Source: a candidate division WWE3 bacterium RIFCSPHIGHO2_01_FULL_40_23 (GTDB lineage Bacteria > Patescibacteriota > WWE3 > UBA101185 > 2-01-FULL-41-18). Taken from it: a stretch of DNA of 64,000 nucleotides. Positions 5,198 through 22,273 of this stretch are shown here, one piece after another. The DNA lies in assembly GCA_001772615.1 (NCBI GenBank), contig MEUZ01000003.1:12450-76449 (forward strand). The letters run 5' to 3'. A program made the translations under genes and the position numbers. Numbering within the stretch: position 1 is the first letter of the stretch; each line of letters starts with the position of its first letter. The notes under the pieces were generated by a model that saw only the letters and a list, made by a program, of their open reading frames with translations, was not told where the DNA came from and searched no databases.

Positions 5198-6952
5198 TTA
5201 CAAAAACTTCCTACTAAAAACCTTTAAAAACTCCTTTAGAGGGAGGGTGTTAACTACACTTCGGCTTTCAACCCAACCTCTCCTTGCAACATCTATACCA
5301 TACCTCATTAATGAATAATCTTCAAGATCATGTGCATCTGTATTTATTATTAGCTTAACACCTTTTTTTACAGCTTCTCTAACAAGCATGTCAGGAAGAT
5401 CCAATCTTTCCGGATGTGCATTAATTTCAAGAATCTTATTTCTTTCCAAAACTTCTTTAAAAACCTTCTCCCAGTCTACCTCATAAGAATCTCTTTGCTC
5501 AAGAAGCCTTCCCGAGGGATGAGCAATAAAGCCGATATAAGGATTCTTTATAGCGTATGTAAGCCTTTCCGTTATTTTTTCTTTGCTTTGATTAAAACTT
5601 GTATGAATGGAGCCTATAGCATAGTCTAAAATTTTTAAATAGTCATCAGGAAGGGAGACTGACACATCAGTAAGAATGTTAACTTCGTATCCAAATAGTA
5701 CTCTCATTGAATCATTTGAGTTATTTATTGATTCAATATGCTTCTTTGTCTTATTTATCAAGGATAAAACTTCTTTCTCACCTCGTGAGTTTATACTAGG
5801 TGCATGATCCGAAATACCGATATATTCATATTTAAACTCTCTTGCTTTTTTTACCATCTCATCCAAAGTGTTATTTCCGTCAGAAAAATTAGTATGCAGA
5901 TGAAGGTCGCCTCTTATATCTTTAAGTTCTATAAGTTTAGGAAGTTTTTTCACCTTCGCTGCTTCTATTTCACCTGAATCTTCCCTTAATTCAGGCTCTA
6001 TGTATGCAAGTCCTAAAAAACTGTAGAAAGATTCCTCATCCGAAAATTCTTTAACCTTTCCTTTAACCTTTATACCGTGCTCGGATAACGAATAACTCTT
6101 TTCAAGGGCAAATTTTCTTAAAGAAATATTATGGGCTTTAGAGCCTGTGAAATGTTGTAAAAGAGCCCCAAACGCATCCGGCTTTTCAGTCATAAGATCA
6201 ACCCTAACGCCGCTTTTTAGTAAGATACTTGCCTTAACGTCACCTTTATTCAAAATTTCGCTTGTATCAGGAAAGCTAACAAAGTGATCAATTACCTTGT
6301 TCGCCGACCTAGTAGAAACTGCAAAATCAATATCCCCAACTGTCACTACCCGCCTCCTAAGGGATCCAAGTGGCTTTATGTCCAAAACCTCCTTGATACC
6401 ACGCATGTAATTTGAGATTTTCTCGGAAACCCAGCTGGCTGTGGGTAAAAGCAACCTTTTCCTTCCTTCTTTATTGGGCTTTAGTTTTTCTATAGCCTCA
6501 AGAATTTCTTTCTCCTTTTGTTCCCCAAAACCCTCAATTTGGCTTATTTTGCCCTCAAGTGCAGCCTTTTTCACCACTTCTAATGAATCTTCCCTCCTTT
6601 TAATATTAAGCTCCTTAGCAAGCCTGTAGGCGGTCTTAGCCCCTATCCCATGTATCCCAAAGAGCCCAAACATACCTCCAGGAAGTTTATTAAAACTAGC
6701 TTCAAAATGCCTAACTTTCCCTGTTCTAAAGTACTCGTCAAGATGCCCAGCTATGCTTGAACCAATACCCGGGATTTCAGTAAGCTTGCCTTCTTCCCAC
6801 AAATCCTTTACCTCCGATGTAGCGTGTTCAATCGCGGTCGCGGCATTTTGATAAGCTCTAATTCTAAAACGGTCCTCTCCGGTCACTTCATACGCAGCGG
6901 CAACCTCTTTTAGTAGTTTTGAAACAAAAGCGTTAGAATACCTGCTCTCCAT
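5198..6952 (-). CDS. Family X DNA polymerase with C-terminal PHP phosphoesterase domain
   Basis: HhH motifs ([24 protein letters not shown]), a PolX palm, and a PHP motif [10 protein letters not shown]...ISDHAP. Confidence 0.85.
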
Positions 6953-7231: not shown

Positions 7232-7717
7232 ATGGAGCAGAAAGAAATTGATGTTAATCCATCAAGAAGTGCTACAACAGCTATAATAGCGGGTATTATA
7301 ATCATTGCACTTGGTTACTTATCATATAGATATTTTAATAGGCCAACTAAACCTGAAATCGGCGAAGGCATTAAAATTGAAAGAGCTACACCGACACCTG
7401 AACCGACTGTAACTCCAACGGAAGAAAAGGACTCTACAAAGGAAGTTACTAAAGTAGAAGAAAAAGAAACAGTTCAGGAAAGAAAGATAGAATCCATTTT
7501 CGCCGCGTGGGTAGCTAATGATTATAAACCTGGGGATATCAAAGGAAGTCAATATAACGTAAGGTCAGGCGACACCCTGTGGGAAATAGCAGAAGGAAGA
7601 TATGGGAATGGATCCGAATGGACTAAAATCCTTTCAGCTAATTCCAGTAAAATAGGCTTTTTACCAAATGGGAGTCAAGCCTTAATTTTCCCGAGTCAAA
7701 CGCTGGCACTACCGTAA
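7232..7717 (+). CDS. LysM domain protein with N-terminal membrane anchor
   Basis: AGGAGG RBS 8 nt upstream. TM helix, then a Pro/Thr/Glu-rich linker and a C-terminal LysM (YNVRSGDTLWEIAEGRYGNGSEWTKI). Confidence 0.8.
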   Translation: MEQKEIDVNPSRSATTAIIAGIIIIALGYLSYRYFNRPTKPEIGEGIKIERATPTPEPTVTPTEEKDSTKEVTKVEEKETVQERKIESIFAAWVANDYKPGDIKGSQYNVRSGDTLWEIAEGRYGNGSEWTKILSANSSKIGFLPNGSQALIFPSQTLALP

Positions 7718-14486: not shown

Positions 14487-15671
14487 ATCGCAACAATAAA
14501 CCTTTTACTTTTAGCGTTGGTTTTTATTATATTAAGGAAGACGGATGTAGTGTTCTTCTCCCCCATCGGAGAAACCATACAAGTAATAAACTCACTATTT
14601 AGTAAACCTCCAAAAAGAGTCGTTTATGGATACCTTCCCTACTGGATGTTAAACAATTCCAAATATATTGAATATGACAAACTCACGGACATCGCATACT
14701 TTTCTTTAAAAGTTGACGAAAACGGCAATTTTGTAGAAAAAGATGCGGAAGGAAACGTTGAGGACGGATTTAAAAACTGGAAAGAAAGTGAAAAGTTAAA
14801 AAAAGTCATTGAATATTCAAAATTGTGGAAAATCAGATTTTCCTTAACTATAACAGGAGAGAATGATGAATCCATTGATGCCTTCCTCTCTTGCAGGAAA
14901 TGCTGGGATGCTCTTCTGGCAAATGTTAAGCAGGAGCTAGACGCTAAAAGCATAAAAGATCTAAATATTGATTTTGAGCATGCAGACGAAACAACGGAAG
15001 AGGTATCAGATGCTTACGCTTTGTTTGTAAAATTTATGAATGACAGCCTAGATGAAACGTTCCAAGATTCGCGAGTTGTTGTCGCTTCCTTCGCAGATTC
15101 ATACAAAAGGAAGAGGGTTACTAACCCCACAAAACTTGCAGAAGCTTCGGACGCTTTATTTGTAATGGCTTATGACTTTCATCAGCCAACCTCTGAGAAT
15201 GCAGGTCCTGTCGCTCCAATAAACGGTTCACCTGAAAAATATGATTATGATGTTTCCAACGCCATTAAAGACTACAAAAAATATGTGTCGGAGCACAAGC
15301 TTATACTCGGCGTACCCTATTATGGCTATAACTTCCTGATTGAAAAACCTGAACCAGACTCCAAAAGAGTTATAGGAAACCCTTCAAACGGGTACTCAAT
15401 ATCGCAGTATTACGCAATGATTAAAGACAACAAAAATATCCCCCTTGAAAAAGCCGTATGGGACCCCACGTCTGAAACGCCTTATTTAATATATAACAGT
15501 CAGGAAAACGGCGCGCTAAGAGTTTTGCATTTTGAAAATGAGGAATCTCTTAAGAAGAAGTATGATATTGTTTTGGACGAAAACTTATTGGGAGTGGGTT
15601 TATGGGCTCTTGGGTACGATGGTGATTACGAAGAGTTCTGGGACGCCCTATCTGATAAATTTAAGAACTGA
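14448..15671 (+). CDS. Glycoside hydrolase family 18-like (chitinase-like) secreted protein
   Basis: N-terminal TM/signal. Carries GYLPYW, a DLNIDFEH segment corresponding to the GH18 DGxDxDWE catalytic motif (first Asp replaced by Asn, Glu kept), and C-terminal GVGLWALGYD. Confidence 0.6.
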   Translation: MKKFFTPRVIILHIATINLLLLALVFIILRKTDVVFFSPIGETIQVINSLFSKPPKRVVYGYLPYWMLNNSKYIEYDKLTDIAYFSLKVDENGNFVEKDAEGNVEDGFKNWKESEKLKKVIEYSKLWKIRFSLTITGENDESIDAFLSCRKCWDALLANVKQELDAKSIKDLNIDFEHADETTEEVSDAYALFVKFMNDSLDETFQDSRVVVASFADSYKRKRVTNPTKLAEASDALFVMAYDFHQPTSENAGPVAPINGSPEKYDYDVSNAIKDYKKYVSEHKLILGVPYYGYNFLIEKPEPDSKRVIGNPSNGYSISQYYAMIKDNKNIPLEKAVWDPTSETPYLIYNSQENGALRVLHFENEESLKKKYDIVLDENLLGVGLWALGYDGDYEEFWDALSDKFKN

Positions 15672-16329
15672 ATTCCCCAACAAAGTCGGTTATGCTCTGG
15701 ATTATCTCATTTAAAATATCCTCGCTTTTTCTTATATTCTCGTCATTTGAAGCTAAATTGTGAGCTCCCCCTTTCAATTCAGTAAGTTTAAAATTCAAAT
15801 GGTTTCTTTCAAGAACCGTCCTGACATCGAAAGCCTTTATATATTCGTCATTTTCCCCTTGCAGCACAAGAACTGGAGATTTTAACTCCCTTAATCTTTC
15901 CTCGGTTATGTAATTTGTAATCGCTGGCTCATAAAAGCCTAATATGATGACCGGAGATCTTAGGTTATTTTGTATTAAGTACTCTAGCGACACTACACCA
16001 CCTATAGACTTACCCACAAGAAATACATTTTTAACCGGTGCATTATCAAGAAGCAAAGAATAGGCACTATCAAGATCCATTATGAGATCTTCAAACTTAA
16101 CCTCTCTAAAATCAATTTTTGAAACATAATAAAAGTTATATCTTAAAGCTGTAAATTTGTACTGATGATAAAAATGGTCATGAAGAGTTACTATTATGGG
16201 ATCTTCTTTATTTCCCGATGCATTGTGAGAAAAAAGGACAGCACCTTTTGGTTCCAAAACTTTATCTAATGTCCCCGAAAGTTTAGAACCCCCTAAAGAG
16301 AGTGATTTTATTTCAACATCGTTAAACAT
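15661..16329 (-). CDS. Alpha/beta-hydrolase fold esterase (dienelactone-hydrolase-like)
   Basis: GxSxG nucleophile elbow (VGKSIGGVV), an HDHF-type His region, and a length of about 220 aa. Confidence 0.65.
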   Translation of the reverse strand: MFNDVEIKSLSLGGSKLSGTLDKVLEPKGAVLFSHNASGNKEDPIIVTLHDHFYHQYKFTALRYNFYYVSKIDFREVKFEDLIMDLDSAYSLLLDNAPVKNVFLVGKSIGGVVSLEYLIQNNLRSPVIILGFYEPAITNYITEERLRELKSPVLVLQGENDEYIKAFDVRTVLERNHLNFKLTELKGGAHNLASNDENIRKSEDILNEIIQSITDFVGEFSS

Positions 16330-16376
16330 ACTAACTGGTGGACCATTCTGGACTATGTTGGAATAACTTGTAGTAA

Positions 16377-17228
16377 CTATGAGACTAAATAAATTCCAAC
16401 AACACTTATAACTGCGCCTACTATTTTCAACAAAGCATTATCTTTTTCTTTGAGTAACAAAATTCCCATAAACACAGTCAATATAACTCCCACTAGGTTA
16501 ATAGTTACCACTTTTGAAGGAAACTCTGCAATCTGTAAAGCTGAAAAGAAAGTTATAGCACCAATCCCATAAAATAGTGATGTAATCAACATTGTTTTGA
16601 TTAGACTTTTATTAAAAACTGTATTTAATTTTAAAATTATCTGTGGCTTGATAGCTAGCATTAACAATGATGGAAATAAAAAAGCTATAAACACAAATGG
16701 GTATAAGGGTATAGACTCCAGAATAATTTTGTCATTTATATTTGCTAGACCAAAGCATAACCCTGCTAACAATGCTGGTATATCGCTTTTGGAAACTGAA
16801 AGCGTACCTTTTCTGTAATTCACAATAATTACGCTTAATATTATTAGAATTGTACCTACTAATTCCTTTAACCCATAAGACTGACCCAATATTAAAACAA
16901 ACCCAATAGTTGAAAATAACGCCCTACTAGCAAAAATGACCACAAATTTAGATGCTTCAGTTTGTTTTAGAGACTTGAAAATAAAGATGTTACCTAATCC
17001 ATATAACACAGTCATGAAAATAAGGTTTACCAAAATATTACTCATGTTACTGAATACAAGTTTCCCTGTTGAAAGGGCGAAAGCACCTATCAAACCTGCA
17101 ACAATTAGTTGAAATACAACTGAAAATATAAAGGGGTCACTATCCTTATCCTTTAACATTATCCTTTGTAGGATAGACACAAAAGATGATAAGACAACGC
17201 TAATTAAAATCAATAATAGCCAACTCAT
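16377..17228 (-). CDS. EamA/DMT family transporter
   Basis: Ten predicted TM helices arranged as two 5-TM halves. Confidence 0.7.
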   Translation of the reverse strand: MSWLLLILISVVLSSFVSILQRIMLKDKDSDPFIFSVVFQLIVAGLIGAFALSTGKLVFSNMSNILVNLIFMTVLYGLGNIFIFKSLKQTEASKFVVIFASRALFSTIGFVLILGQSYGLKELVGTILIILSVIIVNYRKGTLSVSKSDIPALLAGLCFGLANINDKIILESIPLYPFVFIAFLFPSLLMLAIKPQIILKLNTVFNKSLIKTMLITSLFYGIGAITFFSALQIAEFPSKVVTINLVGVILTVFMGILLLKEKDNALLKIVGAVISVVGIYLVS

Positions 17229-18097
17229 AATGTTATGTTAGCAGAATTTAATGATTCTTTGTGATAGATTGCACTTTCCAACCTAATATTCAACTGGTGC
17301 TTTTTAACACAGTCTTTAATTATCAGGTCTAATTGGTCGCGATAATCTTTGTTTTTAGAGGAATAAAATTTCTCAAGCACAGCCTTATCTAATCCTACAG
17401 CTTCCTTTTTTAGCCTATTCAGAATATAGGTACTCAAATTAATATGCTCTACATAGATATCATTAGTACCTGTTTCCTTAATCTTTTTAAATAATTCATC
17501 TAATTTTTCAGGGTACGCGACAAAATGTGGAAGTAATGGTCCTACAAACGCATAGGTTTTTAAACCTTCAGAATTTAGTTTCCTTAAAGCTTCAAATCTT
17601 TGGGTAACATTAGGTGCATATTTTTCAAAATATCTTGATATACCATCTTCAAAGCTGGTAATTGTTAACCCAATTTCAATATTTTTAAGCTTTTGAAACA
17701 AATCAATATCTCTCAATACCAAATCTGATTTTGTTAATATACTAACTAATCCTTGATAATCTGCGTCAACTAACACTTCTAAGCATTTTCTTGTAATTTG
17801 ATATTTCGCTTCTACTCCTTGGTAAGGGTCTGTTACCGAGCTAAACAATATTCTTTTACCAATACCTTTATTTTTAAGTTTTAGTACCGCAGTTTTCAGC
17901 AATTCAGCGGCGTTTGTTTTAACATATACAAACTCACCCCAATCATTTATGTCTTTCCCAACATATCTACACATAAAAGACGCATAACAGTAAATACAAC
18001 CAAATCTACAACCTGTATATGGATTTACAACAAAATCCGCATCAGGTAATTTACTTGGAGTTAATATTGACTTCGCAACAACCTCTTTAATTTCCAT
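17225..18097 (-). CDS. Radical SAM protein, SplB-like (spore-photoproduct-lyase / DNA repair photolyase family)
   Basis: VNPYTGCRFGCIYCYA contains the CxxxCxxC Fe-S motif in the N-terminal context typical of COG1533/SplB-like enzymes. Confidence 0.7.
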   Translation of the reverse strand: MEIKEVVAKSILTPSKLPDADFVVNPYTGCRFGCIYCYASFMCRYVGKDINDWGEFVYVKTNAAELLKTAVLKLKNKGIGKRILFSSVTDPYQGVEAKYQITRKCLEVLVDADYQGLVSILTKSDLVLRDIDLFQKLKNIEIGLTITSFEDGISRYFEKYAPNVTQRFEALRKLNSEGLKTYAFVGPLLPHFVAYPEKLDELFKKIKETGTNDIYVEHINLSTYILNRLKKEAVGLDKAVLEKFYSSKNKDYRDQLDLIIKDCVKKHQLNIRLESAIYHKESLNSANITL

Positions 18098-18128
18098 TAC
18101 CAGTGATTATACCGCGTGTTTACCCTAT

Positions 18129-18191
18129 CCCCCAACATTATAAGAGAAACAACACAACGCAGTTGTGTTAAAATCCTCCAAATGTTGGGGA
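18129..18191. repeat. Nested inverted repeat: outer arms CCCCCAACATT / AATGTTGGGGG (18129-18139 and 18181-18191), inner perfect hairpin AACACAAC-GCA-GTTGTGTT (about 18150-18168)
   Basis: Read directly from the sequence. It lies in the 115-bp gap between the radical SAM gene start and the first ORF of the element. Candidate double-strand origin/nick site for the Rep protein, or an operator/att site. Confidence 0.6.
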
Positions 18192-18193
18192 GA

Positions 18194-18223
18194 TTGGATT
18201 TTCGCTAAAGCTTGGGGTACACT
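18194..18223 (+). promoter_or_regulatory. Candidate promoter of the element's first ORF (-35 TTGGAT, 18-nt spacer, -10 TACACT). The transcript would be near-leaderless, starting at ATG 18233.
   Basis: Hexamers at 18194-18199 and 18218-18223. The -35 abuts the right arm of the outer palindrome. Confidence 0.3.
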
Positions 18224-18997
18224 CCTTTTGCTATGGAGTTACGCGATATTAAATACTTAAAATCATTAAATCCAATAGAGTTTTTAGATAAACCAAGTAA
18301 GGAAACTGTTGAGTTTTTGGCTAAGTTTATGCAAGACCCTAACTTTGTTGCAGTAATCAAACAAATGAGAAGTTACTACAACTACCCTGAAACTGGTATT
18401 GATTTAACACCTTTTATTGGTAAAAACTTTTCAGATACTCTGACTGAAGAAAATGTATTACTAAAAGATACGCTATACCTAAATGCTGATAGGTTAAGAG
18501 AGAAGGTTGGATTAAACGCTGATTTTACACAACAGTTATATTTACTGATATATTTCAATTCATTTATTGATGTTGATTATTATGAGGGGTTTATCACAGA
18601 TAAGGTTGATTTTGCAGTAACAAAAAAGCAGATAATACTTAAACTACTGGATTATAAACAAGAGGTAGCAACAATATATATCCCTTACACCATGAGTTTT
18701 AATACTTTCATAAAACAAACAAAAGAAGTGTGGAATACCATGCAGGATGAAATGGATAAAAACTTAACAGATAATCCTTATGAATTAAGGTTACACAAAA
18801 ACACAGAATTAGCAGTTGAAATAACCAGATTAAAAGATACTGAAAACAAAACATTTTCTGAAATATCTGAATTATTATCTTCAAAAACTAAAGAGGTGGA
18901 TGAAAAGCTTAGTAATGAGAAGTATATTAAAAAACTATATTATGATTACAAAATGCTTTGGTTAAAACCACAAAACCCAGAAGTACCAAAAAGTTAA
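18212..18997 (+). CDS. Hypothetical protein (element-encoded), no recognisable domain
   Basis: 261-aa ORF (TTG-called start; an in-frame ATG at 18233 gives MELRDIKYL...). It is Lys/Glu/Tyr-rich and predicted helical. Confidence 0.5.
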   Translation: MGYTPFAMELRDIKYLKSLNPIEFLDKPSKETVEFLAKFMQDPNFVAVIKQMRSYYNYPETGIDLTPFIGKNFSDTLTEENVLLKDTLYLNADRLREKVGLNADFTQQLYLLIYFNSFIDVDYYEGFITDKVDFAVTKKQIILKLLDYKQEVATIYIPYTMSFNTFIKQTKEVWNTMQDEMDKNLTDNPYELRLHKNTELAVEITRLKDTENKTFSEISELLSSKTKEVDEKLSNEKYIKKLYYDYKMLWLKPQNPEVPKS

Positions 18998-19037
18998 TAA
19001 ACTTTTAGGGTCTGACCATTTAGTGATATAGCAATAT

Positions 19038-19057
19038 TCTCCAGTTAATGCTGGAGA
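19038..19057 (+). promoter_or_regulatory. Stem-loop TCTCCAG-TTAATG-CTGGAGA that sequesters the ATG (19048-19050) of the following 60-aa ORF
   Basis: Perfect 7-bp inverted repeat with a 6-nt loop containing the start codon. It sits between the first ORF and the small ORF and is preceded by GCAATATTC. Confidence 0.3.
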
Positions 19058-19230
19058 TTAAATCCCCTACAAAAGAAGAATTAGACCAACTTAAATGCTT
19101 TTTAGAAGCAAAATTTGGTATTTCTTTTTCTGATGATGAGGTTTTAGAAAGTTATTACTCCCTAACCCATTTAGGAAAAGCAATATATCTGTTTTGTAAG
19201 CAACAGGGGGTCAAAAATGAAATCTCCTGA
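19048..19230 (+). CDS. Small hypothetical protein (60 aa), element-encoded
   Basis: ORF with stop/start overlap into the rep gene (ATGA at 19217-19220... the rep start is at 19217). Acidic, helical. Confidence 0.35.
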   Translation: MLEIKSPTKEELDQLKCFLEAKFGISFSDDEVLESYYSLTHLGKAIYLFCKQQGVKNEIS

Positions 19231-20167
19231 AACTATAGATGATTTTATTGCTTATTTATCCTCCCCTTTAGAAGCACCAGAAATAAACCAAGATTTATAT
19301 TACAAACCCTACCACTCAAAAACTGATGATTTAATAAAAGAAATTCTCGCCAAGCGTAGCGATGGAAATCGCACGCTTTCCCCCTTCTCTCTACTTGATA
19401 GTAGCGTCATAATTCCACCAGTAATTGATAGCTTTAAAACTGCATATTACTTAACTGCAACTACCTATGGGGATTATGTTGACCTGTATATTCATGAAAA
19501 ACCCATTATCAAAGCAAAAAATCTTCAATCAAGAAGAAATCATGGGTTTAAACAAAAAGAGAAAGTTGATAGAAGTAGCGATTACAGAAGAAGAAACTCA
19601 ATAAGGGCGTTAAACAACATTCGCCAACTTACCCTTGCTAACTTTAACAATGACTATGTAAAACTTCTAACCCTTACTTTTGGTGATTGTGACTTTGATA
19701 TTACTAATCCCAGAATTTGCAACAAATTGTTAAGCAAGTTTCTTCAAAAATTACGCAAACGCTATCCTAAATTTAAATATCTAGGTGTTATTGAGTTTCA
19801 AAAGCGAGGTGCTGTGCATTATCATGTTTTATGTGATTTACCCTTTATTGATAAAGAAGATTTAGCAAACTTGTGGGGATATGGATTTATAGATATCAGA
19901 AAACCTGATTTTATTGTTGGAAGTTACCTTTTCAAATATCTTTCAAAAACCCTGTATGACCAGAAATTAAAGGGTATTAGGGTGTATTTCCACTCTAAAA
20001 ACCTTACCAAACCAGTTTTAAATACAGGCGTTACAGCTTTTACTATTGCTGAAAAACTACAGACTTCTGAGATACACTTTGCTAATGAGTACACTAACAA
20101 ATATAATGGGGATGTTATTAAGTATCGCCAGTTTAAAATTCTTCCTGCACCACCAACAAATGTATGA
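19217..20167 (+). CDS. rep: Rolling-circle replication initiator protein (HUH endonuclease superfamily, two-tyrosine type)
   Basis: Motif I KLLTLTFGD (uuTuT). Motif II AVHYHVLCDL (HUH). Motif III GSYLFKYLSK (Y-x3-Y-x2-K, two catalytic Tyr as in phiX174 gpA-type Reps). Confidence 0.8.
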   Translation: MKSPETIDDFIAYLSSPLEAPEINQDLYYKPYHSKTDDLIKEILAKRSDGNRTLSPFSLLDSSVIIPPVIDSFKTAYYLTATTYGDYVDLYIHEKPIIKAKNLQSRRNHGFKQKEKVDRSSDYRRRNSIRALNNIRQLTLANFNNDYVKLLTLTFGDCDFDITNPRICNKLLSKFLQKLRKRYPKFKYLGVIEFQKRGAVHYHVLCDLPFIDKEDLANLWGYGFIDIRKPDFIVGSYLFKYLSKTLYDQKLKGIRVYFHSKNLTKPVLNTGVTAFTIAEKLQTSEIHFANEYTNKYNGDVIKYRQFKILPAPPTNV

Positions 20168-21678
20168 CTAATAATTGTTTTATTTACTGTAGAAAATCTA
20201 CTGATAGAAATGATAAACAAGAGAAATCCTTGGAAACACAGGAAAGAATTTGTTTAGAAACTGCAAGGCGTAACAATCTTAATGTTTTAGAGGTAATTTT
20301 AGAATCTAAATCAGCTAAAGACGCTGGTAATAGACCTAAATTTGATGAGTTAATCGCACATATTAAAAGTAAAGATGCAGGTGTTATTGTTACTTGGGAT
20401 ATTGATAGATTAGCAAGAAATTTAACTGAAGCAGGACTACTTCAATCTTTATATGAAACTGGCTTTATTCAAAAAATAATCACTGAAAATGATATTTACC
20501 AATCTGATAGGGATTTTATGAATATTGGTCATGAGTTTGTTGATGCTTCTAACTACTCCAGAAGATTAAGGTCAAAAGTTAAAGATGGAATTGAAACAAA
20601 ACTTAGAAATGGCGAAATTCCAGGGTCTGTAAAAATAGGTTATTACATAGTTGATAAGAAAATGAAACCAGACCCAGATAGGTCACCTTTTGTAAAACTA
20701 GCATTTGAAATGTATGTACAAGGTAATTCTCTACGCATTATTACTCAAAAACTTTATGAAATGGGTTTTAGAAGCAAAAAAGGTAACAAAATGTATCTAT
20801 CCAGTATTGCTGAAATGCTAAAAAGAATTGATTACACTGGTACTTTTGAATACAACAAGCAACTTTATCAAGGAAACTATGACCCACTTATTTCAATGGT
20901 TTTATTTGATAAGGTACAAAAATTACTTGTTAAAAACAATCTTCCAAAATCTCAAAAACATTATTTTCTTTACAGGGGGGTTATAAGATGTGCTGACTGT
21001 GGTTGTATGCACACTGCAACTATGAAACAAGGAAAATATGTTTATTACTACTGCACCAACTCAAAGCGTATCTGCAAACAACATGAAAAGTATATTGAGG
21101 AAGAAGAAATGCACAAACTCTACAGCACTAAACTATCTGAATTACCTATAGATGTTGAAATTTTAAATCAATCCTATGACCTGTACGCTAAAAATTACCT
21201 AATGCAGTACAAAGATGTGGAAAATCAGAAAAACCTTGTTAAAAAGCAACTAGGGAATGTAGAAACAAGGATTAAGCGCTTGGTTGATATCTACATAAAT
21301 GGCGAAATCCAACAGGAAGTATATTCTCAAAAATACAAAGAGTTAGTTTTAGAAAAAGAAACACTCCAAAATACCTTAAATAAACTAGAAACCCAAAAAC
21401 CTGAAGAAACCTTGGAAACAATTAGAAAATTCAAAGATTATTGTTGTGACCTGCAAAAAACCTATTCACTTGGTAATAATGAGGTAAAAGATGAAATACT
21501 AAATGCAGTGTGTTGGAATTTTTCTATCCTCAATGGTGAAATAGCGTCAATACAATACAAAAAGCCCTTTGATATGATAGCAAAACTACCCAAAAACGCT
21601 GATTTTAGAAATTGGTGGGTCAAGCAGGATTCGAACCTGCGACCTCCTCGATGTGAACGAGGCGCTCTAACCAGCTGA
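20164..21678 (+). CDS. Large serine recombinase (resolvase/integrase family) with recombinase domain, Zn-ribbon and coiled-coil
   Basis: N-terminal catalytic domain FIYCRKSTDRNDKQEKSLETQ (Y-x-R-x-S-T...SL..Q). Zn-ribbon CADCGCMHTATMKQGKYVYYYCTN. Long coiled-coil C-terminal region. The start overlaps the rep stop (ATGA). The last 22 codons are antisense to tRNA-Val. Confidence 0.85.
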   Translation: MTNNCFIYCRKSTDRNDKQEKSLETQERICLETARRNNLNVLEVILESKSAKDAGNRPKFDELIAHIKSKDAGVIVTWDIDRLARNLTEAGLLQSLYETGFIQKIITENDIYQSDRDFMNIGHEFVDASNYSRRLRSKVKDGIETKLRNGEIPGSVKIGYYIVDKKMKPDPDRSPFVKLAFEMYVQGNSLRIITQKLYEMGFRSKKGNKMYLSSIAEMLKRIDYTGTFEYNKQLYQGNYDPLISMVLFDKVQKLLVKNNLPKSQKHYFLYRGVIRCADCGCMHTATMKQGKYVYYYCTNSKRICKQHEKYIEEEEMHKLYSTKLSELPIDVEILNQSYDLYAKNYLMQYKDVENQKNLVKKQLGNVETRIKRLVDIYINGEIQQEVYSQKYKELVLEKETLQNTLNKLETQKPEETLETIRKFKDYCCDLQKTYSLGNNEVKDEILNAVCWNFSILNGEIASIQYKKPFDMIAKLPKNADFRNWWVKQDSNLRPPRCERGALTS

Positions 21679-21689
21679 GCTATAGACCC
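21613..21689 (-). tRNA. tRNA-Val (anticodon CAC). The acceptor stem has one U.U mismatch (6:67).
   Basis: Cloverleaf from the reverse complement: acceptor GGGTCTA/TTGACCC, D-stem GCTC/GAGC, anticodon stem CCTCG/CGAGG with loop TTCACAT, T-stem GCAGG/CCTGC with loop TTCGAAT, CCA encoded. Confidence 0.75.
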
Positions 21690-21701
21690 ATTACATCTCT
21701 T

Positions 21702-21710
21702 ATTGTAACA
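21702..21710 (-). promoter_or_regulatory. Extended -10 (TGtTACAAT in sense) about 12 nt upstream of the tRNA-Val 5' end
   Basis: Plus-strand ATTGTAACA at 21702-21710. It belongs to the same TGnTACAATAA family seen at uvrB and uvrC. Confidence 0.35.
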
Positions 21711-21718
21711 TTTAAACC

Positions 21719-22273
21719 ATGTTTAAATCACTGAAAAAGCTTCTAAAAGAATCGTTTTTAACGGCTCTTGTAGCAGTTTTATTAGTCTTTATTGTTAATC
21801 AACTCCTCATTGAACCAGAACAAATATTTGGAGTATCAATGGAACCTGCACTCAAAAACGCCGAAAGAGTGCTTGCGGATAAAATCTTCTATAAAAGAGG
21901 TTCACTAAAAAGAGGGGACATAGTTGTTTTTAAATCCGTTGAAGATAATAAAAGCGTTTTTGTAAAGCGTGTCATTGGTTTACCCGGTGAATCTCTTATG
22001 ATAAAAGAAGACAAGATTAACATATTTAACGACGTCAATCCACAGGGTTTTATCCTGGAAGAGAAATACCTCAAAGATTCTATCAAAACTTACTCTGGGA
22101 GTTTTCTTGAAGAAAGAAAAATTCTTAAAATTCCTGCGGAGGCTTACATTGTTTTAGGGGATAACAGATTTAAAAGCATAGATTCACGAGAATGGGGATT
22201 TCTACCTGAAGAGAAGATAATCGGAAAGATAATTTTTAGGCATTGGCCGCCAAACAGGTTCGGGTTTATATAA
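21719..22273 (+). CDS. lepB: Signal peptidase I
   Basis: N-terminal TM. Carries SMEP (Ser box), [24 protein letters not shown] (box E). Confidence 0.85.

Follow-up and report, generated by a model that had tools for sequence, protein, structure and literature searches.

Tyrosine integrases classically insert their elements at tRNA genes. In the Mx8 IntP and SSV-type systems, attP lies within the integrase coding sequence (CDS) and integration changes the 3′-end of the gene (PMC6070905, PMC4383910, PMC7253208), and pSAM2 and the related integrative and conjugative elements of actinomycetes (AICEs) are small elements that integrate in tRNA genes and carry a rolling-circle replication gene (Rep) beside the integrase gene (PMC2440964). 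Serine integrases were left out by the authors of the main tRNA-island database, as none was known to use tRNA genes (PMC4383910), and a full-text literature search, which was incomplete so that a prior description is possible, found no later report of serine integrases targeting tRNA genes. For serine integrases, a distinction between attB and attP half-sites was proposed from the A118 integrase structure, with the zinc-ribbon domain (ZD) motif 5 bp nearer the centre in attB than in attP, moving from bp 16-24 to bp 11-19 (PMC3783163). The stretch analysed here, referred to as the window, is 64,000 nucleotides of contig MEUZ01000003.1 from candidate division WWE3 bacterium RIFCSPHIGHO2_01_FULL_40_23, and includes a large serine recombinase gene that overlaps a tRNA-Val(CAC) gene on the opposite strand. 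Window positions 16336-21618 very probably represent an integrative element of ~5.28 kb inserted at the last six bases of this tRNA gene. Besides the recombinase gene and a rolling-circle Rep gene, it has two genes of cargo, a structured region in its interior and two genes that are small or unknown. What appears to be new is the class of target for a serine integrase, together with an attP built into the stop region of the integrase itself.

The features that define the junctions are as follows.
20164-21678, + strand: large serine recombinase (integrase) of 504 aa, with PF00239, PF07508 and PF13408 domains; matches phrog_95, integrase (1.5e-74)
21613-21689, − strand: host tRNA-Val(CAC), detected with ARAGORN
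16336-16341, unstranded: attL core TGGTGG, the left copy of a 6-nt direct repeat that is the only sequence common to both junctions
16342-16364, + strand: P′ arm ACCATTCTGGACTATGTTGGAAT, with one match in the window where 0.02 are expected by chance, and conserved in six sister elements
16358-16364, + strand: T-loop-like motif TTGGAAT in the P′ arm, at +17 from the core
21588-21612, + strand: P arm inside the recombinase CDS, …CCCAAAAACGCTGATTTTAGAAAT, with near-invariant nucleotides among the sisters
21613-21618, unstranded: attR core TGGTGG, the antisense of tRNA C71 C72 A73 C74 C75 A76
21617-21618: candidate crossover dinucleotide GG, suggested by the TGGT-GG-ACCA symmetry of the reconstructed attP
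21630-21636, within tRNA-Val(CAC): T-loop motif TTCGAAC, at +12 from the core

Domain and residue tests identify the enzyme as a large serine integrase, for which integration by attP x attB recombination is predicted. It includes the N-terminal catalytic Resolvase domain (PF00239; 5.2e-18), the Recombinase domain (PF07508; 1.5e-15) and Zn_ribbon_recom (PF13408; 28.2 bits against a cutoff of 25.3). The catalytic residues R10, S12, D81, R82 and R85 are invariant across ten homologues, as are Cys276, 279, 281, 297 and 304 among the homologues, and the only PDB match is to the C-terminal domain of the A118 serine integrase (4KIS; 5.8e-08).

The ends of the element were located by comparison with six sister elements of 4.0-5.3 kb, the recombinases of which are 73-84% identical. 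At the right end, similarity among the sisters stops exactly at AATTGGTGG and is followed by a different tRNA, Val-CAC in the window and Val-TAC, Ala-CGC, Ala-GGC or Ile-GAT in the sisters. The P arm that precedes this point is near-invariant at the nucleotide level, though the proteins have diverged to the extent given above. At the far end, a block of ~22 nt, TGGTGG followed by [AG][CG]CAT..GGACTATGTTGGAA (also written ..GGACTATGTTGGAAC), has a single match in the window, at 16336 (0.02 expected), and is found once at the distal end of each of the six sister elements in different hosts and tRNAs. Both flanks of this block differ between the sisters, with unrelated host sequence to the left and unrelated cargo to the right. 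The left junction reads …catactaac-TGGTGG-ACCATTCTGG and the right junction AGAAAT-TGGTGG-GTCAAGCAGG, which continues as the body of tRNA-Val. The first base after the core is already different (A at 16342, G at 21619), and what follows the left core is the conserved arm of the element; it is no displaced fragment of tRNA-Val. GC content is 0.31-0.33 across 16-21 kb versus 0.35-0.39 in the flanks.

When the two ends are joined, the attP obtained is …GCTGATTTTAGAAAT-TGGT-GG-ACCA-TTCTGGACTATGTTGGAAT…, where the core forms a 4-bp palindrome around GG. The reconstructed attP junction is GCTGATTTTAGAAATTGGTGGACCATTCTGGACTATG and the reconstructed empty attB is TCGTTAAACATACTAACTGGTGGGTCAAGCAGGATTCG. 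The length of the common core ranges from 6 to 12 nt among ten elements, and in this one it is only 6 nt. Family members in tRNAs with G73 have TGGCGG in both sites, and one in a tRNA-Gln has TGGCTG.

The last 66 nt of the recombinase open reading frame (ORF), at 21613-21678, are antisense to tRNA positions ~12-76, the last 22 codons crossing the att core and then running antisense into the tRNA, and the core itself supplies the Trp-Trp codons W484-W485. The same arrangement was found in other genomes. A survey of 80 homologous loci in the genomes of GTDB species showed, in 41 of them, a tRNA on the opposite strand where the recombinase ORF ends, the tRNAs being those for Ser, Val, Ala, Asp, Gln, Trp, Arg, Asn, Gly and Leu. 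Where the CCA end is encoded, its complement, TGG, is in frame as Trp in 29/29 loci, and tRNAs that lack an encoded CCA keep the same register in 9/10 loci, giving the same frame to the tRNA end in 38/39. Homologues of 84% down to 36% identity all end in W…(D/E)SN…, as obtained when a tRNA CCA end and T-loop are translated antisense. As the overlap recurs in 41 loci and the register is shared in all but one of 39, it is neither a chance adjacency nor an over-called ORF. In the integrated state, however, the 20 residues encoded antisense to the tRNA vary in length and sequence among close relatives. The integrated ORF tail is …NWWVKQDSNLRPPRCERGALTS (extended form …WWVKQDSNLRPPRCERGALTS), and that of the ORF on an excised circle is predicted to be …NWWTILDYVGITCSNYETK (extended form …WWTILDYVGITCSNYETK).

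A spacing rule relates the two arms that flank the core on the tRNA side and in P′. In the tRNA arm (T/A)TCGAAC begins at +12, whereas the TTGGAAC-like motif of the P′ arm begins at +17; the shift is exactly +5 in 13/13 hits though shifts of 3-7 were allowed. An element in a tRNA-Gln gene from IMG/VR concurs. The B′/P′ pair thus conforms to the 5-bp shift rule of serine integrases, while only TGGTGG is common to the junctions.

These features suggest how the present arrangement most probably arose. The recombinase would have joined attP, …GCTGATTTTAGAAAT-TGGTGG-ACCATTCTGGACTATGTTGGAAT…, to attB at the 3′-end of tRNA-Val, …catactaac-TGGTGG-GTCAAGCAGGATTCGAACC…, with strand exchange inside the shared TGGTGG that corresponds to tRNA C71-A76. 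The P arm and core would form the last recombinase codons (…N-W-W), and the integrated ORF would continue antisense into the tRNA up to a chance stop, which would account for the 66-nt overlap. The tRNA would be rebuilt with only A73-CCA and C71/C72 exchanged, and would survive because attP and attB do not differ in the exchanged bases. Everything from position 1 to position 70, U6 and U67 among it, is untouched host DNA. Recognition is probably through generic tRNA features, namely the CCA/discriminator core and the T-loop TTCGAAC at +12 serving as a zinc-ribbon motif that is mirrored at +17 in attP, and by analogy with known integrases the zinc-ribbon domain may read the T-loop sequence. This sequence is nearly universal in tRNA genes, which would explain why close relatives occupy different tRNAs. 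After excision, which is itself predicted and may be continuing, Rep would permit rolling-circle replication.

A number of points weigh against this reading or limit it. No empty attB or circular attP junction was recovered for the host, all of the 23-24 contigs that carry the flank being occupied, and the boundaries rest on comparison between elements because no occupied/empty pair was recovered. Context look-ups with LepB and the radical SAM protein likewise returned only occupied sites, and the element is present in all 23 contigs that carry the radical SAM gene. The LepB homologues indicate a host that has no close sequenced relative, the next best being 48% identical. Viral contigs scanned for the element ends and the attP junction held none of the close family, and one relative of 38% identity, that from IMG/VR, is also integrated, in tRNA-Gln. 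GG is likely to be the crossover dinucleotide, but a dinucleotide cannot be read from sequence. The +12/+17 motif has no clear copy in the P or B (host-flank) arms, so that the half-site logic is seen for one side only, B′/P′. The view that U67 is native derives from the position of the junction, and no closely related tRNA-Val(CAC) was found for comparison. Finally, L060 and some other distant relatives share longer tRNA-identical blocks at their junctions (15 nt in L060).

L060 (2751-2765 and 7440-7454) is a locus with a 35%-identical recombinase next to a tRNA-Gln that has no encoded CCA, and the 15 nt common to its junctions cover the discriminator, the 3′ strand of the acceptor stem and the 3′ strand of the T-stem. 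Because of this, some family members could supply more of the tRNA than six bases.

Two observations on assemblies concern the left att site. Logan contig SRR3989342_578385 (L106) begins exactly at the left TGGTGG (16336) and runs 5325 nt into the tRNA, and L004 has a 40-N scaffold gap across attL (window 16314-16420). Both fit a branch of the assembly graph at the att site, such as excised circles would produce, and are a hint rather than proof. The host genes on either side are closely spaced. An alpha/beta-hydrolase gene (15661-16329) starts at 16329, 6 nt left of the attL core, and once the empty site is reconstructed, tRNA-Val has its CCA end 6 nt upstream of the start codon of this co-oriented gene. 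With a reconstructed gap of only 6 nt, the element appears to have split a very tightly packed gene pair. On the other side, lepB is 30 nt past the tRNA and is followed by the genes for ribosomal proteins L27 and L21.

The first-pass annotation of this locus had drawn attention to a U·U pair in the acceptor stem of the tRNA, and proposed that it records a chimeric tRNA reconstituted by integration. The tRNA (21613-21689, − strand), the 66-nt overlap and U6·U67 as the sole mismatch were all confirmed using ARAGORN, Rfam and direct reading of the sequence. With RF00005 the tRNA scores 70.9 bits, more than any of the three other tRNAs in the window, and a single pair is flagged as non-standard, in the acceptor stem. 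In this stem GGGUCUA faces UUGACCC, after which come A73 and an encoded CCA; U6 and U67 correspond to window positions 21684 and 21622, and all other stem pairs are Watson-Crick. An assembly error does not account for the mismatch, as the tRNA sequence is identical across 13/13 independent contigs.

Integration at the tRNA 3′-end with the att site inside the integrase gene, as the annotation had it, is borne out by the similarity that stops at AATTGGTGG. Its placing of the core between tRNA positions 7 and 66, and with it a chimeric origin, is not, given that the only sequence common to the junctions is TGGTGG, nt 71-76. Position 67 had been regarded as contiguous with the recombinase gene and derived from the element. 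However, the junctions diverge directly after TGGTGG (ACC versus GTC), and U67, like U6, therefore belongs to the host side of the crossover. No displaced tRNA-Val 3′ fragment, as would be left by the joining of two halves, was found at the other end of the element, and a direct-repeat search for the 3′ half or fragment detected no second copy anywhere in the window, even with 3 mismatches allowed. As judged from the junctions, the U·U pair belongs to the host gene, whether native (ancestral) or independently acquired, since positions 1-70 are untouched host DNA, and is not a scar of integration.

Such mismatches are not particular to tRNAs next to recombinase genes. An acceptor or T-stem mismatch was found in 3/40 recombinase-adjacent tRNAs versus 2/38 other tRNAs in the same loci, and one of the latter two also has U6·U67. 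Family-wide, the acceptor and T stems are perfectly paired in 37/40 recombinase-adjacent tRNAs. Other tRNAs from candidate phyla radiation (CPR) bacteria that have a single acceptor-stem U·U mismatch were noted in L031 (2561-2635) and L051 (7597-7673), the examples being a tRNA-Arg(CCT) that does not adjoin a recombinase gene, with U6·U67, and a tRNA-Asp with U4·U69. Searches for a counterpart of the host tRNA gave little. An exact 54-nt pattern of the tRNA had no match in GTDB genomes and JGI metagenomes, and a 25-nt pattern of the anticodon arm retrieved 36 tRNA-Val(CAC) genes of unrelated bacteria, which are uninformative on position 67 because none has the GGGTCTA acceptor strand. Some Logan contigs have their first base at 21636, within the tRNA, and looked at first sight like a junction, but a neighbouring contig overlaps them; the start is more likely due to a 30-mer common to another tRNA-Val in the sample, and no conclusion was drawn from them.

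Four other explanations were considered alongside insertion at the CCA end of a host tRNA. If the element lay inside the tRNA body, with its core somewhere in positions 7-66 and a tRNA 3′ half of its own, U6·U67 would be the join between host and element. Tyrosine-integrase islands in tRNA genes are normally built in this way (PMC4383910), and the recombinase gene does abut the 3′ side of the tRNA, with the 15-nt block of L060 available as a precedent among distant relatives. It is nonetheless very improbable, as the two junctions here part company at the base after TGGTGG, the left arm is conserved in elements found in Ala, Ile and Val-TAC genes, the window holds no second tRNA 3′ copy at the 3-mismatch level, and the sister tRNAs have covarying T stems and the Ala-specific G3·U70, as expected of intact host genes. 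A later lesion, in which position 6 or 67 mutated after integration or after an earlier unrelated element had used the same tRNA, and which may be tolerated via a redundant tRNA-Val or altered expression of this copy, is unlikely. The element is fixed, with 13/13 contigs identical and no empty site found, which would have allowed time for drift, and the native 3′ trailer of the tRNA has been replaced by sequence antisense to the recombinase gene. On the other hand, the other conserved features of the tRNA are intact and its Rfam score is the top one in the window, similar single mismatches, one of them U6·U67, are equally frequent in tRNAs away from recombinase genes, and there is no evidence of an earlier element.

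The remaining two explanations concern the tRNA and its neighbour rather than the mismatch. Variation in the 20 tRNA-antisense residues among close relatives is what would be seen if the recombinase gene merely sat beside the tRNA with an over-long ORF call and no functional link, but coincidence is scarcely credible for an arrangement repeated in 41/80 loci in an identical register (38/39), with element similarity that ends exactly at the last six bases of the tRNA. Equally, mobile elements sometimes carry tRNA genes (PMC10865867), and the tRNA could in principle be cargo and not a host gene. This is highly implausible where near-identical sister ends each precede a different tRNA and different host genes, and where lepB and the genes for L27 and L21 follow the tRNA at 30 nt. 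Integration at the last six bases of a host tRNA-Val gene, with U6·U67 belonging to the host, is hence the preferred explanation.

The other genes and features of the element are listed here.
16377-17228, − strand: EamA-family transporter (PF00892; 1.3e-23), cargo, between attL and the core module
17225-18097, − strand: radical SAM protein (PF04055), SPL or 'mobile pair B'-like, cargo
18128-18203, unstranded: conserved internal non-coding region of nested hairpins followed by GATTGGATTTTC, from sister alignments
18233-18997, + strand: conserved element gene of 254 aa, present in all sisters, with no Pfam, PHROGs or NCBIfam match
19048-19230, + strand: conserved gene of 60 aa, present in all sisters, with no family match
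19217-20167, + strand: rolling-circle replication initiator (PF23343, REP_ORF2-G2P; 7.8e-21)

The sister elements, though in different genomes, share a module composed of an unknown gene of ~255 aa, the 60-aa gene, the rolling-circle Rep and the recombinase. Rep also matches phrog_3419, 'rolling circle DNA replication initiation' (1.2e-21). The 60-aa gene is at most a candidate directionality factor or regulator, and the 254-aa gene is another candidate for the directionality factor. The radical SAM and EamA genes are counted as cargo because the left boundary is at 16336. A left end at the ~18.1 kb hairpin, CTCCCCACCAC…, was an early candidate; a 12-nt right-junction repeat in L007 led to the conserved P′ block, and the single match of this block at 16336 moved the boundary, and the hairpin was dropped. 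The cargo position is filled by different genes in the sister elements, and in three of them by a methyltransferase of the rRNA-adenine-dimethylase family (KsgA/Erm-like; L007 3382-4984, L022 2530-3423 and L019 330-1220). The radical SAM protein matches phrog_13321 (1.5e-48), a phage protein family with no known function, and TIGR04470, 'radical SAM mobile pair protein B' (1.6e-43), the latter under its cutoff.

The internal region is located between the cargo and the core module, and has outer arms that resemble CCACCA/TGGTGG, followed by the invariant GATTGGATTTTC. The inner stem covaries in eight sisters, which have GCATATCC…GGATATGC or GCACACAC…GTGTGTGC where the element in the window has CAACACAAC…GTTGTGTT, and the outer arms CCCCCAACAT/ATGTTGGGG covary with CCACCAC/GTGGTGG. 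Possible roles of this region are those of a promoter or a rolling-circle origin, or it may be an inverted copy of the att site that has decayed.

Further arrangements were seen in relatives. In eight relatives of 28-33% identity (L039, at 5852-5938 and 7354-7440, L041, L043, L047, L049, L050, L057 and L083), an inverted repeat of 47-126 nt brackets the recombinase gene. It starts at the last six bases of the tRNA, runs into the 3′ CDS of the recombinase and is 100% complementary where scored (L049). A further inverted repeat in L049, of 121 nt, comprises the core and P′ (2868-2988 and 5746-5866). A T-loop-like motif is found at +17 outside the left copy, and because this is the attP spacing, the left copy looks like a complete inverted attP. 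The arrangement might represent a pair of attP sites in inverted orientation, or else a recombinase segment that can invert. L035 includes two tandem 152-nt units (137-232 and 289-384), ~4-5.7 kb upstream of a related recombinase gene, of which the first 21 nt match the 3′-end of the adjacent tRNA-Ser exactly, without the core TG, and which end in a sense-strand T-arm. L007/L023 and L022 come from two metagenome-assembled genomes (MAGs) labelled as Saccharibacteria and WWE3, yet the sister element occupies one and the same tRNA-Ala(CGC) site in both, and the genes to either side look homologous; an error in the binning or in one of the two taxonomic assignments is possible.

Mobile elements of CPR bacteria are poorly known, and a small integrative rolling-circle element with exchangeable cargo is documented here in this group. 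For the question from which the analysis started the outcome is deflationary, as the U·U mismatch is no evidence of a chimeric tRNA, and the underlying system outweighs the mismatch in interest. The case is evenly balanced for a broader proposal, that tRNA genes are specified, through the CCA-discriminator core and T-loop, by a large clade of serine integrases that is as yet undescribed and occurs chiefly in CPR/Patescibacteria, with further members in MAGs assigned to other phyla. As part of the same proposal, and equally uncertain, relatives of 75-84% identity would move among Val, Ala and Ile tRNAs by means of the shared TGGTGG core, with attP in the last codons and CCA always read as Trp. 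If this is true, it would overturn the rule that only tyrosine integrases target tRNA genes, and would provide natural integrases with a landing pad that is predictable in any bacterium that encodes CCA. Because universal tRNA features would suffice to predict the target, such integrases could be useful for engineering the genomes of uncultivated or non-model bacteria. The elements would also exemplify, in nature and with several targets, the 5-bp attP/attB motif-shift model, and island finders that rely on a displaced fragment would miss them because the repeat is only 6 nt.

The described systems that come nearest each share some of these properties. Tyrosine-integrase islands of the Islander type (P4, pSAM2 and mv4) also occupy the 3′ side of a tRNA, with the integrase gene adjoining the tRNA and the tRNA left intact. 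However, their enzyme is unrelated, and they carry a tRNA fragment of tens of nt, with a displaced fragment at the far end, whereas the only recombinase in the element described here is of the serine type, the identity duplicated is 6 nt and the window includes no recognisable displaced tRNA fragment. pSAM2-like AICEs are likewise small tRNA-gene elements with a rolling-circle Rep next to the integrase. pSAM2 has a tyrosine integrase, Xis and a conjugation gene, whereas profile searches of this element found no tyrosine integrase and no recognisable transfer gene, and a RepSA match of 23.5 bits was below the cutoff of 34. The att-in-ORF architecture is the same as that of Mx8 IntP and the SSV type, though their enzymes are tyrosine recombinases. 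Phage-type serine integrases such as A118/LI, Bxb1 and phiC31 have the same resolvase (catalytic Ser), recombinase and zinc-ribbon domains, with short att sites and a small core, and likewise place the outer motif 5 bp inward in attB (PMC3783163). Unlike in those systems, attB here is a tRNA 3′-end with a CCA/discriminator core and the T-loop as outer motif, attP overlaps the stop region of the integrase gene itself, close relatives use different tRNAs, and the carrier is not a phage but a 4-5 kb rolling-circle element of CPR bacteria.

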